From positions 15,208,762 through 15,272,761 of the forward strand of contig NC_092378.1 in NCBI RefSeq assembly GCF_030028105.1: a DNA stretch of 64,000 nt, in the 5' to 3' direction. The position numbers and the translations under genes were made by a program. Below the pieces are notes generated by a model that worked only from the letters and a program-made list of their open reading frames with translations, was not told the origin of the DNA and ran no database searches. This document shows positions 23,910 to 51,543 of this stretch, one piece after another; within the stretch, counting starts at the first letter, position 1; the number at the start of each line of letters is the position of its first letter. Source of the stretch: Mobula birostris. Taxonomy: Eukaryota.

Positions 23910-24530
23910 AAAAACACGAGAAAGCCTGCAGATGCTAGAAATCCAAAGCAACACACACAAATGCCAGAGGGACTCCGCAGGTCAGGCAGCATCTATGGAA
24001 AGGGGTAAACAGTCGATGTTTCGGGCCGAGACCCTTGTTCAGGATTGAGAAGGTGGAAGATGCAAGAATAAAGAGGTGGGAAGTGGAGAGTGGACAACAG
24101 GAGAAAGAAAAGAATAAAGTTATTCTGTCTGAGTACCCTCCAATTTGATGGGACGAATAGTGATTTCTCCTTCTGGTGAACAAATCCACCCTCTCCCCAC
24201 CCCCATTCCTCCTTCCCCATTCCCCACTCTGATCCTTTCTTTCTCGTCACCTGCATATTACTTCCCCTGGGTCCCCTCCTTCTAACCTTTCTCCCACCCT
24301 TGACCTTTCCTACCCACCTGGCTTCACCTATCAGCTTCTAGTTAGCCTCTCCCCCCACCCCACCTTTTCATCCTTTCATCTTCCCTCTTCCTTATTAGTT
24401 TAATTCCTTATTAGATTTGATTTCCTACAAATCTCACTGCGGTCTTGGCCCAAAAAGTTGACTGTATACTCACTTCCTTAGATGCTGCCTGACTTGCTGA
24501 GTTCCTCCAATATTTTGTGTGTGTTGAAGT
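23910..24530. mobile_element. Penelope-like element fragment with inverted terminal repeat parts
   Basis: Minus terminal repeat about 23910-24110; plus-strand GIY-YIG C-terminal remnant, pyrimidine tract and terminal repeat about 24135-24530; both hammerhead motifs degenerate. Confidence 0.75.
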
Positions 24531-26304: not shown

Positions 26305-26850
26305 AAAAGGACGGAGAGGAGGTGTAGGGACAGGTATGACATTTTGCAGAGTTACGGGGATAAGTGCCTGGAGAGGGATGAGCAGACAAGGAACTGCCAA
26401 CTACATAAATGACACCAATGAGTGAACAAGTAAAAGATTGCCTCGTGTGGAAGGGACGTTTAGGTCCCTGATGGTGGTGAGAGAGGAGGTGTAGGGGCAG
26501 GTATAACACTGAGCCCAGTTACAGGGAAAAGTGTCTGGAGGGGGATTGCTAGGGGGAACCAGACAAACGAGTCATGGAGAGAGCAATCCTTGTGGAATGT
26601 GAAGAGGTGTGAGGAAAGATGTATCTGGTGGGATTGTTTTGGAGATGGCAGGCGTTGCAGAGGCTCATGGGTCATAGGTGGGTACAAGGATTCACTTATC
26701 ACGTGCCAGTTCTCACTCCACACCCTTTCATATTGGCCATCTCTTTCTTTCCGGTCCTGAAGATCTCAACCCAAAACATCGACTGTCCATTTCCCGCCAT
26801 AGATGTGCTGGACCTGCTGTGTTCCTCCAGTATTTTGTGTGTTGCTCTAC
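26305..26850. mobile_element. Penelope-like fragments: minus-strand internal part plus plus-strand terminal repeat
   Basis: QGPKRPFHTRQSFTCSLIGVIY on the minus strand; degenerate hammerhead and GCTGGACCTGCTGTGTTCCTCCAG at about 26753-26845. Confidence 0.7.
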
Positions 26851-27950: not shown

Positions 27951-28912
27951 TTGATCCAATCAGTTTCAAATTTAGCTCATGAAGGATCTCAGCCCAAAAT
28001 GTCAAATGATTACTCTTTTCTATAGATGCTGCCAGGCCTGCTGAGTTCCTCTAGCATTTTGTGTGTATTACTCAAATTTATCTGTTACTGAAGTATGAAT
28101 TAACTGGTGTGCACACATAACACTAACATTGGTGTCAGGTTCAGTCAGCCATATAGCATTAGAATAGGTTTTATGGCCTATTAAGTCAATGCAAACCATC
28201 AAGCACCCACTTACGCTAATCCCATTTTATTCTCCCCACATCATATCAACTTCAAAGAGATAGCACCAGAGGTCAAGATCGAAGCTGGGTCGTTGGAGCT
28301 GTGCTGTAACGCTGTACCAGTGTAACACACAATCATTGACCCCTATATATATCATGCACTAGCTACATCAAATATTTTTGTAGCATTGCGTGGGACACTT
28401 CAACTGAATTATTGTCGAGAAAAATAGATGTCTACTTACATGCCTGCAAGGGAAAAATGCTGGCAGGTATTCAACTTGAGTTTTTGAATAAGCAGTGTAC
28501 GTGAGACTTCAGAATTTCTCAGTCAGATGAATTGCTTTGTACATTTAGTATTTTATCGATGACTTAAAAATGCTTTTCTCATTTCTAATCATTGTGTTCA
28601 TCACTCTCATTTGTACCCTCCCCTCTTTTGCCGAAACTTGTTTCTCCATATCTGCAAATTTGTTCCTCTGTCATCACCCCAGTAAGACTAAACTGCACAA
28701 ACTTCAAATAAAAAGTATTTCTATTTCCATAAACATAAGAGATTCTGCAGATACCAGAGACCAAGAGTAATTCACACAAAATGCTGGAGGAACTCAGCAG
28801 GTCAGGCATCATTTATGGATTGGCCTGAAACATCCAGATTCCAGCATTTTGTGTGCATTATTTTTATTTCCATAATTGTTTTCCTGGAACTTAAGATCAC
28901 AAAGTATTATTA

Positions 28913-30943: not shown

Positions 30944-32578
30944 CTAAAGGCAGAAAAAATAAAAATAAACATTTCATTGCAGTCATTGTTCTGTGCAGAA
31001 TACATGATCACATTTTAAACAATTGTTTCTCAGGCTATGGAAACCGAGTTATGATGGATGATAATATTTTTATGTTGAGTATTGAGATTTAAATCTGGTG
31101 TTATATGTTAACGGAATATATAAATTCACGGAAGACTCAACTTATGTTGTATATGTTTTAATGTTTTGAAAGAGGTATTTTAGATTAAAGAACTAGATTA
31201 TCTGTTTGAGACTAATTTACCTTATGAATTAGATGCAGAGTTTACGTTTTGGAGCCCTAGCCAATAGTACACGTCCACAAGTTGGCAATCATGAAGTATT
31301 CAACTAAGCTCACCGGCTTAACTGTTTCACAGAAATGGTTGAAATTTCTCTGGCATTACAACTAAAAGCATTCTTTTACCAAATCATTTTTGTTATTGCA
31401 AGCAATTATAAAATAATAAAAATCTGTGTAGCTTCAACAGTGAAGACTTTCATTCTCAATACTTATGCTTCCACCTGACATTCTTCAGTTCCTCGTATGG
31501 GTTGTTTCAACCCAATGCATGCTCCACATTCTCAAACCTCTGCACTGGTTGCACAACTTGTTCCTGTTCCCAAACCCCAGTTCCAGCTGCACTTAGACTC
31601 CATCTTTGGCCTCTGTAAAATTCTCCAAGTTGATTAGAACTAATATCAGCATCCTTTCCAGACCGATGTCTCCAGCTCTGAAATCTCATCTACTGTTGGT
31701 TATGTTGCAAAGGCCAAACTGTTTGCATGCCCAATACCAGTCTTCTAAAACCAGCACTCCATTTCAAGTGTTATCATGGAAAATTATCTGGCAAACCCAG
31801 GAAAAGATTCAAGCATGTGCTGAAAGCTTTATTTGAGGAACTGCAACAACCACAATGACTACGAGCTGCCTCTGGTTCATGGCTGCTCAAAGCACAAGGC
31901 CACTCAGGTTGGTACTGTGAACCCCAAATTCATGCACTGGGAGAACACAGAAACGAAGCTTGGCAAATGGAAGCAAACCAAGTCACAACCTACTCCTTCA
32001 TCTGCTCTGACAGGCACCTATGAAAGAGTTTGCGGTTCCCAAAATGACCTAATTTGATAGCTCACAGCCAACAAAACCAGAGTGGAAGCTAACCATCGTT
32101 GATCTCACTGTAAAGAATTTATAAACTAACATTGGTAACATATAAGTATTACTAATTTATGGTTTCAATTGCACATGCAGCCCTCAAGTACTTTGACCAC
32201 GATGCAACTTTAGGGCATCATGAACGACCATAATTCAGGCCTCAATTAACATCCATTTTAAGTAAAAATACCATTTTCATTCTTTGCAAAATAAAGTTTA
32301 CATGTTTAAAAAAATGTTTTGTTGAGAGTTTGACTAATTGGTGCTCTCAGCTTTCATCAATAGAATCATTACTGTGTACTGCTTGTCAGAAAGAGGATTC
32401 CCAAATAGAAATTCCCAACTTCTGGATGTGGCTTAGCTATAAAAGGATCAATAAGTTAACTGCAAATTTATTCTGGAAGGGAATGCCAAATACCCAAGGG
32501 TCCTAAAATAAATAAGAGAAAAATAAACCATTATGCAGAACTTTATAAAATATAATGAACCTTCTGAAGTGCACATAC

Positions 32579-32696
32579 CTTGCTGCATATTTACTGAAAT
32601 CTCTCTTTGACTGAAACGTGTAGACAGTCAATGCAATGAATACAGCAGTCGTTAAAGCAAATGCTTGCAGAACTACTGAATAGTCATAGAAAGTAA
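32579..32696 (-). CDS. TMBIM4: TMBIM4 exon 5 ([36 protein letters not shown])
   Basis: Family motif LQAF..T..VF..LT.YT.QSK.DFS; AG and GTATGT boundaries. Confidence 0.96.
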
Positions 32697-32910
32697 CTGA
32701 AAATAAAAAGATAGATTGTGAAAATAAAATTTAAATTTTAAATCTCTGAATTAACATTTTCATTTACTTACAGCAGGTACAATTAGGATTAGGCCTAGCA
32801 TAATTGAACAATACAAGCAATTTCATACTACAAAAAGATACAATGGAGGTCTAAGAAGTTAATGAAAAATTAAAGTGTTTTCATTTTGGCAAACTATACT
32901 AGATAATAAC

Positions 32911-33182
32911 GAGCAACACATACAAAATGCTGGTGAACGCAGCAGGCCAGGCAGCAACTATTAGAAGAGGTACAGTCGACGTTTTGGGCCGAGACCCTTT
33001 GTCAGGACTAACTGAAAGAATCTCTTACTATCTCTTCTTTCAGTTAGTCCTGACGAAAGGTCTCGGCCCGAAACGTCGACTGTACCTCTTCCAATAGATG
33101 CTGCCTGGCCTGCTGTGTTCCACCAGCATTTTGCGTGTGTTGCTTGAACTTCCAGCATCTGCAGACTTCTTCGTGTTTGCAT
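32911..33182. mobile_element. Penelope-like terminal-repeat insertion with inverted duplication
   Basis: Arms 32912-33020 and 33035-33144 are inverted; 11-bp TSD TAGATAATAAC at 32900-32910 and 33183-33193. Confidence 0.9.
33046..33081 (+). ncRNA. Minimal type I hammerhead ribozyme motif (PLE type)
   Basis: AGTC CTGACGA A AGGTCTCGGCCC GAAA CGTC GACT: intact core and GUC cleavage triplet; one mismatch at the base of stem II. Confidence 0.7.
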
Positions 33183-33363
33183 TAGATAATAACAAGGTGG
33201 GTAGCACTGTGACGTGAGTCAGCTACTGGGCTTCAATACTAACCACAGGAACTGTCTACGTAACAACTGCATGTTTCCCTGCAAGTGTGTGATTTCCCTA
33301 GTGCTCCAGTTTTCTTTACATCTTAAATACTTGCTGGTTAGTAGGTAAATTAGTTATTTAGAG

Positions 33364-35716
33364 CAGTGGTCCCCAACCACCCGGCCACGAGGAAACAATA
33401 CGATTTGGCGATATGAAATGATATGAGTCAGCTGCACCTTTCCTCATTCCCTGTCACGCCCACTGTTGAACTTGAACGCATGTGAGGTCATCAGTCGGTC
33501 ATTAACCTACAACTACTTGATGAGTAAAAAACAAACTGCTTGAGAGTTTCTTTGGAAGAGGTGGTAGGGGACCTAGAAGCCCCAATGATGATGATAACGC
33601 AGAGACAGCTGAGGCCAAGACTGCAAAAAAAAAGCTTCCTTCAACAGAAAATACGAGTTGTACATAAAATATGGCTTTATTGCGACCGGTGACTCGAACA
33701 CTCCAAGCCCCCTGTGTGTGATATGTGGAGACAAGCTGTCTAATGAGGCAATGAAGCCCTCAAAACTGCTTCGGCACCTTGAGTCCAAGCACCCTGCACT
33801 TAAAGACAAACCTGTTAAGTTTTTTGAGTGGAAAAAATGTGAGCAAGCGGGACAGAAGCAAGTGCTGACAGCCACCACCTCCACAAATTCTGCTGCTCTG
33901 AGAGCGTCGTACTTAGGGCTAGCCGTATTGCTAAGGCTAAGAAGCCTTTCACTGTTGGTGAAAAATTGATTCTGCCTGCTACCAAGGACATGTGCCGTGA
34001 ACTGTTGGGAGAAGCTGCAGCTAACAAGATGGCACAGGTTTCTCTTTCAGCTACCACAGTTTCAAGGAGAATCGACGACATAGCAGAGGACATCGAAGCA
34101 CAGCTGTTGGAATGGCTTAACGAGCCACCATGGTAAGCTACCCAGGTCGACGAGTCTACCGATGTCGACAACAAGGCAATACTGCTGGTTTATGTGCGAT
34201 ATATATTTCAAGACGATGTGCACGAGGATATGTTGTGTGCACTGCCGCTGCCAATTAACACAACTGGGGCAGAACTATTCAAGTCTTTGAATGACTACAT
34301 GTTAGGCAAACTGGACTGGTCATTCTGTGTTGGAATATGCACAGTCCGGGCTGCAGCTATTACCGGACGGCTGTCTGGTTTCACTACCCAAGTCAAAGGG
34401 GTTGCTCCTGAATGCCAGCCTACACACTGTGTCATACACAGGGAAATGCTGGCTAGCCAAAAAACGTCACCTGATCTTAACAGCATATTGCGTGACGTTG
34501 TTGAAGTTATCAATCACATCAAAGCAAAAGCCCTTAACTCAAGTCTGCTTGAGCAGCTTTGCGAGGAAATGGATGCAGAGCACAAATACCTTCCGATTAC
34601 ACACTGAAGTCAGGTGGCTATCAAGGGGGAGAGCCCTGGCCAGGGTTTTTGAGCTAAGAATTTCTTTCAGCTACGGATTTCTTTCAGCTAAGAATTTCTT
34701 TCAGCTACGGATTTCTTTCAGGAAAAAAGTCACCACAGGCAGCACACTTCAGTGATGAGGAGTGGATAGCAAAACTCGCTTATCTGTGTGACATCTTCAA
34801 CCTGCTCAATGAACTCAATTTGTCACTTCAGGGGAGAATGACAACTGTCTTCAAGTTGGCAGATGAAACGTCTGCTTTCAAAGCCAAACTGGAACTGTGG
34901 GGATGGCGAGTGGACAGCGGCATATTTGACATGTTCCCAAAATTAGCTGGGATTTTGGGAGAGACTGAGGCTACACTGTCCTTCTCACAGCTGGTGCGCA
35001 ATCACCTATCTTCGCTGTCGACAGAATTCGAGCGTTACTTCCAAACCGCAAATGACCCAAGACGTGCAAAGGAATGTGTCTGAGACCCATTTGTGAATGT
35101 CCCTGGTGAATCATCCATGTCAGCGCGGGAAGAAGATCAACTCCTCGAGCTTGCAAATGACGGCGGGCTGAAAAGTATGTTTGACATAACATCTCTGCCG
35201 GCATTCTGGATCAAAGTTAAGGCTGAATATCCTGAGATAGCCATGAAAGCACTGAAAACGTTGCTTCCATTTCCAACATCATATCTCTGCGAAGCGGGGT
35301 TTTCTGCAATGAATGCAGAGAAACAAGCGCAGGGCTCCCACTGATTCAGCGATATTGGTGTGTTGCAATGATTTTATATGTTCATACGTGGAAAATATGC
35401 GCTGTGTGTTTAATATCCAAACATTACTTAAAATGTTAGGATGCTATTGACTTATAAGTGACTTATAATTGACTTATCACTATACTCATGCGAGGAAAAT
35501 ATGTGGTGTGTTTAATATTAAATTCGTTAGATAAACCCTTTTAGAAACAAAATTGAGTGTACAGGTATTAGCCACTTATAAGTGACTTATAGTTGACTTA
35601 TCACCTATATTCCGGTCATGATTAACACCCCCCCCCCCCCACCCCCGTTGGCCAGTCCACAAGAATATTATCAATATTAAACCGGTCCGCGGAGCAAAAA
35701 AAGGTTGGGGACCCCG
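33364..35716 (+). mobile_element. Full-length hAT (Buster/Charlie-type) DNA transposon with pseudogenised transposase
   Basis: TIRs CAGTGGTCCCCAACC and GGTTGGGGACCCCG; 8-bp TSD ATTTAGAG; BED-like CVIC...LRHLESKH, VDESTD, HCVIHRE, RWLSRG, PFPTSYLCEAGFS; stops and frameshifts. Confidence 0.95.
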
Positions 35717-41659: not shown

Positions 41660-41750
41660 GAATCCTGCTGAAGGGTCTCGACCCGGAACATCGACTGTAC
41701 TCTTTTCCGTAGAGCCTGCTGAGCTCCTCCAGCATTTTGTGTGTGCTGCA
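41660..41750 (+). mobile_element. Penelope-like terminal repeat fragment with degenerate hammerhead
   Basis: CTGCTGA AGGGTCTCGACCC GGAA CATC GACTGTAC...CTCCAGCATTTTGTGTGTG. Confidence 0.75.
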
Positions 41751-42149
41751 TTAATTTATCATCGCCCCGTGTTCCCTATCTCCATCCAGAATATTTAGCA
41801 GCTCAGAGAAAGACCCTTTGCCATCAACAACCTTTGGACAGTATATGTAAACAAATGCCTTGCAAGCATTGATTCTTACTTCCTGAACAAAGCTAATCAT
41901 GTTTGTGGTTCCTAACACAGTATGCGGCTTATCTTGATACACCGATAGTACAGTAATGATAATCGGGTGAAAGTTTTGCCTCCCAGCCAACGAGGAGCGG
42001 TCACTGTACCGGCCCTATGGGCCGGATCCGAGATCTGGGCTCCACTCTAACGGCTTGCCGGCCTCCTCGGGCCCTTCGTCAACAGCTACGGCGCAATGGC
42101 AGTGTCCGGTCCCCGGGCCCTCTTGCTAAATATATTTTCCCTTTGTTAC

Positions 42150-50750: not shown

Positions 50751-51140
50751 ATGTACATCAAAACATACAGTTCCTCCCTCACTACCATTCAGGGCCCCAG
50801 ACAGTCCTTCCAGGTGAGGCGACACTTCACCTGTGAGTCGGCTGGGGTGATATACTGCGTCTGGTGCTCCCGATGTGGCCTTCTATATATTGGCGAGACC
50901 TGGCGCAGACTGGGAGATCGTTTTGCTGAACACCTACGCTCTGTCTGCCAGAGAAAGCAGGATCTCCCAGTGGCCACACATTTTAATTCCACGTCCCATT
51001 CCTATTCTGATATGTCTATCCACGGCCTCCTCTACTGTAAAGATGAAGCCACACTCAGGTTGGAGGAACAACACCTTATGTTCCGTCTGGGTAACCTCCA
51101 ACCTGATGGCATGAATATTGACTTCTCAAACTTCCGCTAA
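50751..51140 (+). CDS. Penelope-type GIY-YIG endonuclease domain ORF (transposon-derived; expression unknown)
   Basis: FTC...GVIYCVWCSRCGLLYIGET.R.L..RF.EH...H F...EEQH...GMN without stops. Confidence 0.7.
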   Translation: MYIKTYSSSLTTIQGPRQSFQVRRHFTCESAGVIYCVWCSRCGLLYIGETWRRLGDRFAEHLRSVCQRKQDLPVATHFNSTSHSYSDMSIHGLLYCKDEATLRLEEQHLMFRLGNLQPDGMNIDFSNFR

Positions 51141-51543
51141 TGCCCCACCTCCCCCTTGTACCCCATCCATTATTTATTTATATACACACATTCTTTTTCT
51201 CCCTCTCCTTTTTTTCCCTCTGTCCCCCTCACTATACCCCTTGCCCCTCCTCTGGGCTTTCCCCCCCTGTCCCTTTTCATTCTCCCTGGGCTTCCTGTCC
51301 CATGATCCTCTCATATCCCTTTTGCCAATCACCTGTCCAGCTCTTGGCTCCATTCCTCCCCCTCCTGTCTTCTCCTATCATTTTGGATCTCCCCCTCCCC
51401 CTCCCCCTCCCACTTTCAAATCTCTTTCTAGCTCTTCTTTCAGTTAGTCCTGATGAAGGGTCTTGGCCCGAAACGTTGACTGTACCTCTTCCTAGAGGTG
51501 CTGCCTGGCCTGCTGCGTTCACCAGCAACTTTTATGTGTGTCT
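50771..51543 (+). mobile_element. 5'-truncated Penelope-like retroelement (GIY-YIG, pyrimidine tract, terminal repeat)
   Basis: GIY-YIG ORF followed by a C/T-rich UTR and a hammerhead-containing terminal repeat; interrupts a minus-strand SINE. Confidence 0.93.
51446..51481 (+). ncRNA. Minimal type I hammerhead ribozyme motif (PLE type)
   Basis: AGTC CTGATGA A GGGT-CTTG-GCCC GAAA CGTT GACT: stem I, core, stem II, palindromic ACGT, GUU triplet. Confidence 0.8.

Follow-up and report, generated by a model that had tools for sequence, protein, structure and literature searches.

Insertions of EN+ Penelope-like elements (PLEs) take a recognizable form: an inverted, 5'-truncated copy, a tail of 30-40 bp on one side only and a short TSD, as set out in the passages of PMC8557442 and PMC3846280 on which we draw. 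Inverted-pLTR insertions of this kind are given there for Adineta Pen2a (PMC3846280) and in Fig. 2 of PMC8557442. Both strands of the target are cut and extended by the anole PLE protein, whose reverse transcriptase (RT) starts at two internal sites bounding the tail (PMC11167929). The pLTRs of metazoan PLEs also carry a minimal type-I hammerhead motif; according to the sections of PMC4209133 used here, a single minimal hammerhead showed no cleavage and needs a tandem partner, and the anole hammerhead requires protein (PMC11167929). Non-LTR retrozymes, as defined in the portion of 10.64898/2026.07.22.740005 available, are non-coding, PLE-derived tandem repeats whose units are arranged head to tail, each with an intact motif.

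Here, we describe an insert at positions 32900-33193 of a 64,000-nt window (the whole stretch of DNA that was analysed). It is very probably a TSD-bounded pair of head-to-head pLTR ends from an abundant EN+ PLE; a single integration event likely laid it down, it has likely stayed inert, and we infer that it originated from two cDNAs. Its architecture is already in print, such pairs are common, and the locus itself is ordinary. The features referred to below are as follows.

32579-32696, minus strand: TMBIM4 exon 5; spliced ends seen in four of four RNA-like runs
32900-32910: left TSD, 11 bp, a direct repeat; 283 nt are skipped here in three relatives
32911-33020, minus strand: short arm, a 5'-truncated pLTR without tail, sense to TMBIM4, from the inverted-arm alignment
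32973-33010, minus strand: the sense arm's minimal type-I hammerhead motif, carrying G8>A (33000) and G12>A (32985); numbering and minimal fold after PMC4209133
33021-33034, plus strand: spacer of 14 nt, made of pLTR sequence that belongs to the long arm and is also found ahead of the pLTR core in the 51419-51541 copy
33035-33144, plus strand: long arm, a pLTR antisense to TMBIM4, from the inverted-arm alignment
33045-33082, plus strand: the antisense arm's minimal hammerhead motif, carrying G10.1>A (33058), from the alignment of related arms
33145-33182, plus strand: PLE tail, 38 nt, of a kind found on one arm only in 24 of 26 loci (compare PMC8557442, PMC3846280 and PMC11167929)
33183-33193: right TSD, 11 bp, from the direct repeat and the empty-site comparison
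50775-51541, plus strand: separate 5'-truncated PLE copy with GIY-YIG end, 3' UTR and the same pLTR, which links the insert's repeat to a coding PLE

The 11-bp direct repeat occurs nowhere else in the 64-kb window, and 272 bp lie between its two copies. The inverted arms align over 32912-33020 and 33035-33144 and differ by eight substitutions and one indel; five of the eight substitutions fall at CpG sites, leaving three non-CpG substitutions and the indel. The arms are unequal in that only the right one continues into the 38-nt tail, and the spacer joins the short arm over a 2-nt microhomology, as read from the sequence. Either strand folds into a single long hairpin (z = -23.9 for minus, -27.0 for plus), and none of 200 shuffles per strand folded as well. 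A first-pass annotation of this DNA had proposed a TSD-bounded insertion forming a hairpin of about 110 bp some 215 nt upstream of exon 5, and had suggested folding it as a check; the dimensions and the predicted pre-mRNA duplex both agree with that proposal. Its statement that the insertion is made only of two inverted PLE terminal repeats was correct as to the inverted repeats and overlooked the one-sided tail.

The insert shares with the Adineta and PMC8557442 insertions the head-to-head pLTRs, the tail at one end and the short TSD, which measures 8-10 bp in the Adineta examples given, 11 bp here and 9-15 bp in 22 of 26 distinct inverted loci of the same family. Lacking an ORF or a second, direct pLTR, it stands at the shortest end of the truncation range represented by those published cases. 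The relevant passages of PMC3846280 and PMC8557442 do not describe ORF-less pairs at the density found for this family, and we found no paper on such pairs (hereafter stubs) in cartilaginous fish in the limited collection of literature searched. The tested features of EN+ PLE insertions were all found at the insert: a pLTR shared with an RT/GIY-YIG parent, a head-to-head truncated copy, a 38-nt tail at one end and a TSD with an empty site.

The PLE origin of the repeats, proposed in the first-pass annotation, is supported by longer relatives, in which the same pLTR closes frames encoding RT and GIY-YIG domains. In three copies that were fetched, open frames of 762, 655 and 635 aa each end in the insert's pLTR; the longest gave Pfam matches to RT and GIY-YIG (E 3e-5 and 3e-3) that lie below the curated cut-offs, and its motifs were read directly. 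After RT comes a GIY-YIG domain at the C terminus; the linker contains a CX4CX2C motif, and two cysteines stand between GIY and YIG. A CX2-5CxxC linker motif before GIY-YIG is among the criteria for Neptune and Nematis in the section of PMC8557442 cited, and the CX4CX2C linker therefore likens the parent to this type; the motif points to the insert's repeat being the pLTR of a Neptune/Nematis-type PLE, the clade pair being assigned by motif. The element is abundant: the GIY-YIG fragment at 50775-51541 returned 187,799 first-look candidates in the genome, and among the matches that were scored 150 had 91-96% identity, the fragment itself excluded. One long PLE copy (L118:2147-4894) carries an inverted, 5'-truncated copy of about 500 bp, with the tail on the inverted side and arms 96.6% alike, which by its sequence is the insert's architecture at a larger scale. 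Eight more copies of the pLTR family lie in the window, at 1911-2045, 23912-24044, 24441-24526, 26739-26846, 27981-28072, 28773-28816, 41663-41757 and 51419-51541.

The host exons, on the minus strand, match Bax1-I and the neighbouring gene matches LLPH (Pfam); we take the host gene to be TMBIM4 from the human sequence and from synteny. The insert lies 215 nt from exon 5, which starts at 32696, and exon 4 occupies 37310-37277 on the minus strand, so that the insert is in intron 4 if exon 1 is the one near 42.2 kb. Four presumed-RNA runs from two organisms and two studies were consulted as contigs, in which rare forms are dropped, intron flanks are uncovered and the repeat is swamped by paralogues. 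All four contain a contig covering exactly exon 5, and two contain the adjoining exon sequence; TMBIM4 is expressed, and in each run exon 5 has its normal spliced ends.

That the segment is a true insertion, as had been claimed, is established by contigs from related organisms (four runs, B, C, D and E). Those of C, D and E join 32911 directly to 33195, skipping 283 nt, and since 283 equals 272 plus 11 the empty site keeps one copy of the TSD. Contigs of B enter both ends of the insert. Presence in the window's own organism (A) and in B, with an empty site in C, D and E, places the insertion after the split from C and before that of A and B. In the flanks, B differs by about 1.0%, C by about 3.5% and both D and E by about 7%, and the three non-CpG substitutions and one indel between the arms would fit neutral ageing against the 3.5% divergence to C. 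The insert is in this respect a clean presence/absence marker, carried by A and B. A 12-bp stretch at window position 32449, common to C, D and E and missing in A and B, is a second marker uniting A with B.

We propose that such an insert is built from two cDNAs. The GIY-YIG nuclease would nick AT-rich DNA on both strands, staggered 11 bp apart, and each nicked strand would then serve as primer for a separate cDNA copied from element RNA: one cDNA would begin at the tail start site, the other at the start site lying 38 nt further inward. The two would stop after about 110-160 nt, and their ends would be joined over the 2-nt microhomology; decay since the insertion has been mostly at CpGs. Two cDNAs, one per cut strand and start site, joined at their truncated ends, would give exactly the shape of the insert. 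Priming from both strands at this locus is argued by analogy with an in-vitro study of a Poseidon-clade element. In L1 twin priming, two target ends likewise prime cDNAs, which cover different parts of one RNA; at the insert, in contrast, the two cDNAs would cover the same stretch of about 110 nt.

The same stub might instead come from one cDNA that folded back and primed itself. Self-priming on an antisense template is the route favoured in the part of PMC3846280 that treats these structures, and the insert's junction would result from folding back over 2 bp around a loop of 14 nt. This route leaves unexplained, however, what makes the copied arm end where the tail begins, and it meets a second difficulty in the related loci. 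Thirty inverted loci were fetched by similarity, of which four were duplicates (L024, L026, L029 and L030), leaving 26. At five of the 26 (L013, L023, L025, L027 and L028) the 5' reach of the tailless arm exceeds that of the tailed one by 12-14 nt. Each arm there has sequence that the other lacks, so neither was copied from the other and a simple fold-back cannot yield them. Such arms favour two separately primed cDNAs, and we regard fold-back as unlikely for the insert. Single loci matter little here, the insert being one of very many; as a class, stubs are a large fossil record against which models of PLE integration can be tested.

The first-pass annotation had further taken the insert for a coding-free mobile unit, and one may ask whether the palindrome is itself a non-autonomous element, resembling a retrozyme or a MITE, that PLE proteins copy from master palindromes. 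Many palindromes of similar length have TSDs of their own, the exact junction of the insert is present at five places in the 4.0-Gb genome, and pLTRs suffice for mobilisation in trans in Adineta, by the account in the consulted part of PMC3846280. The five loci that share the junction are, however, not nearer to one another than random sets are (6.4% against 6.9%, p = 0.36). Across the inverted loci, arms group by locus and not by side: the non-CpG distance is 4.4% between the arms of a locus and 6.8-7.0% between loci, whichever side is compared, and none of 20,000 shuffles was as low. Gene conversion between arms could also cause this likeness. The one-armed tail may sit on either side.

Introns gave a sample free of the bias of a similarity search: 1.8 Mb inside seven genes (six ANF-receptor and one FTO-domain), with 350 copies of the family. 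Close pairs were head-to-head in 48 of 58 cases, 47 of the 48 junctions differed, and none matched that of the insert. Copies sharing a junction together with arm-specific variants, as expected of a MITE-like unit, were found neither in the genome-wide junction search, nor among the 26 loci, nor in the 1.8 Mb of introns, and the insert does not consist of at least two head-to-tail units with intact motifs, as a retrozyme would. It shares with non-LTR retrozymes the non-coding content, the PLE derivation and the type-I hammerhead motif, and differs from those described in the available text of 10.64898/2026.07.22.740005, where they are defined as tandem repeats, in being neither tandem nor intact. 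The mobile-unit reading is thus not sustained; to judge from these sequences the insert is probably not self-propagating, and copying from a master palindrome is very improbable.

Head-to-head pairs reach a density of 26.7 per Mb in the sampled introns, about 100,000 genome-wide by extrapolation if the sample is typical; tandem pairs number six sense and one antisense, against the 48. Six of the seven genes are presumably tissue-restricted. The sampled genome also contains a large cluster of ANF-receptor genes (G000:C5:9.8-12.9 Mb), probably of V2R/OlfC type, several of them with stops. Among the search-selected loci, junctions cluster at the front edge of the pLTR; in L001-L030 they gather about 25 nt upstream of helix I, with several near-perfect palindromes centred there. 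This cluster may mark the 5' end of the RNA, in a set biased by the query.

Both arms retain a recognizable hammerhead motif. The family majority fits the minimal PLE hammerhead at all core columns, and the insert shares with the metazoan motifs of PMC4209133, as far as the quoted sections go, the extra base between positions 9 and 10.1, the short helix I, the palindromic 15.2-16.2 and the absence of a helix III loop. Its copies differ from those hammerheads in being inverted rather than tandem, and in both being damaged; because they are inverted, no dimer can form on one strand. Searches of the whole window against Rfam gave no match at the gathering score. Relaxed to E<=10, they returned generic hairpin (miRNA) models far below the cut-off and chance matches, which we rejected, with no hammerhead among them. 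On the sense arm the changes G8>A and G12>A are both CpG>CpA, in agreement with the CpG decay that had been suggested, and CpG sites in related arms change at 13.1% against 4.0% elsewhere. The antisense arm had been noted to keep the blocks CTGACGA, GAAA and GUC. It does keep them, but its G10.1>A change breaks the first pair of helix II, at a position where G is found in 50 of 52 related arms and in nearly all paralogous contigs. In the predicted fold of the pre-mRNA, 94% of the motif is paired long-range, and forcing the hammerhead helices costs about 63 kcal/mol. The features of an active hammerhead were therefore absent at the insert: both motifs are damaged in core or helix II, there is no tandem partner, and the motif is predicted to be buried. 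A successful young sub-lineage of the family carries C11.1>T in 25 of 37 copies (L005, L017, L019, L022, L028 and the intron sample), which makes 10.1-11.1 a G.U pair; this suggests that helix II was already weakened in source elements while they were spreading.

Damage at two catalytic positions of the sense arm had led the first-pass annotation to propose that selection removed them because a sense ribozyme would cut TMBIM4 pre-mRNA. Both changes do lie at catalytic G positions, the insert's sense arm is the only one of 52 related arms with both, and tandem retrozymes are reported to be depleted in Xenopus introns (10.64898/2026.07.22.740005, in the portion available). The genome-wide orientation bias that this reading predicted did not appear in the 1.8 Mb of introns, where 177 copies are sense and 173 antisense (p = 0.87). 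After the 115 of 350 copies that do not span the core were dropped, the full set of 13 core positions was preserved in 11 of 120 copies on the sense side and 13 of 115 on the antisense side, and G8 and G12 were both changed in 7 of 120 and 7 of 115. Within 47 pairs, derived core changes numbered 44 on sense and 33 on antisense arms (p = 0.25; non-core, 321 and 326); a wider set of 63 pairs gave 46 and 40 (p = 0.59).

The sense arm was the worse one in 12 pairs against 4 (p = 0.077), and in the young subfamily pooled intact cores were fewer on the sense side (2 of 27 against 10 of 34, p = 0.05; rank test p = 0.012); both signals come from post-hoc subsets among many tests. The first form of the young-subfamily signal (1 of 20 against 9 of 26 intact, p = 0.028) was rejected, as much of it was due to C11.1>T and it vanished when such columns were removed. 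Since C11.1>T is present on both arms at 5 of the 26 loci, it was probably inherited from the source element. With inherited variant columns excluded, 11 of 288 sense and 9 of 312 antisense sites were changed (p = 0.65), and a pre-specified replication in 600 kb of new introns, a small one with 7 against 8 young copies, was not significant. An apparent tail-side bias (16 antisense against 5 sense) likewise weakened with a better tail test (23 against 12, p = 0.09; all copies p = 0.44). A weak trend toward sense damage in the young subfamily is what is left, and a selection effect of about 1.5-2 fold is compatible with the intron sample. Moreover, the antisense copy is damaged too; its arm, the first to be transcribed, is predicted to trap the sense arm, and a solitary minimal hammerhead held in a duplex leaves little to select against. 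Selection against the sense copy is accordingly highly improbable, and its damage is likely ordinary mutation.

In TMBIM4 pre-mRNA the duplex of about 110 bp that would form from the two arms would bury both hammerhead motifs and be removed with the intron. It is predicted to contain four A.C mismatches, two of them at G8 and G12, and ADAR favours A.C mismatch sites; on this modelled structure incidental A-to-I editing of the hairpin is plausible. An A>G difference at 33058 in the RNA-like contigs was considered and rejected as editing, as it sets the paralogue majority against a private change of the insert. Inverted Alu pairs form comparable intronic duplexes, possibly edited, which arise from two separate insertions. 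A more far-reaching idea, which we hold only tentatively and think rather doubtful, is that each PLE insertion can lay down a ready-made hairpin through its two cDNAs, so that the extrapolated 100,000 or so stubs would be the main intronic dsRNA and ADAR substrate, resembling inverted Alus but from single events, with CpG decay leaving A.C mismatches at the catalytic G8 and G12 and mild selection perhaps acting against young sense cores. If raw RNA reads showed heavy editing of stubs, these would be the lineage's counterpart of inverted Alus. By analogy with transgenic Drosophila, in which inverted Penelope copies yield siRNAs (PMC3681739, in the passage cited), small RNAs from the stub class are also plausible.

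That the hairpin has been co-opted to regulate exon 5 splicing or to induce editing of TMBIM4 is scarcely credible: the gene is expressed and the predicted duplex, with its four A.C mismatches, lies 215 nt from the acceptor, but the insert is lineage-restricted and missing in three relatives, the non-CpG divergence of its arms is near the neutral ageing expectation, no pairing of the hairpin with the exon 5 acceptor region is predicted (p about 1e-5), and no flank-anchored joint between the element and exon 5 is listed among the contigs of the four RNA-like runs, which drop rare forms.

Just upstream of helix I, the pLTR (33021-33044, plus strand; also in L022 and L028) resembles a 3' splice site, with a branch-point-like motif, a pyrimidine tract and CAG. 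The part of PMC4209133 concerned places the end of an intron in Drosophila virilis Penelope at the 5' end of helix I. Sense intronic copies could in this way bring cryptic acceptors, none of which was seen used at the insert in the four RNA-like runs. The same TMBIM4 intron also holds, at 33370-35000 of the window and about 180 bp past the insert, a hAT-like DNA transposon in a decayed state, with a BED zinc finger recognized by a weak Pfam match.
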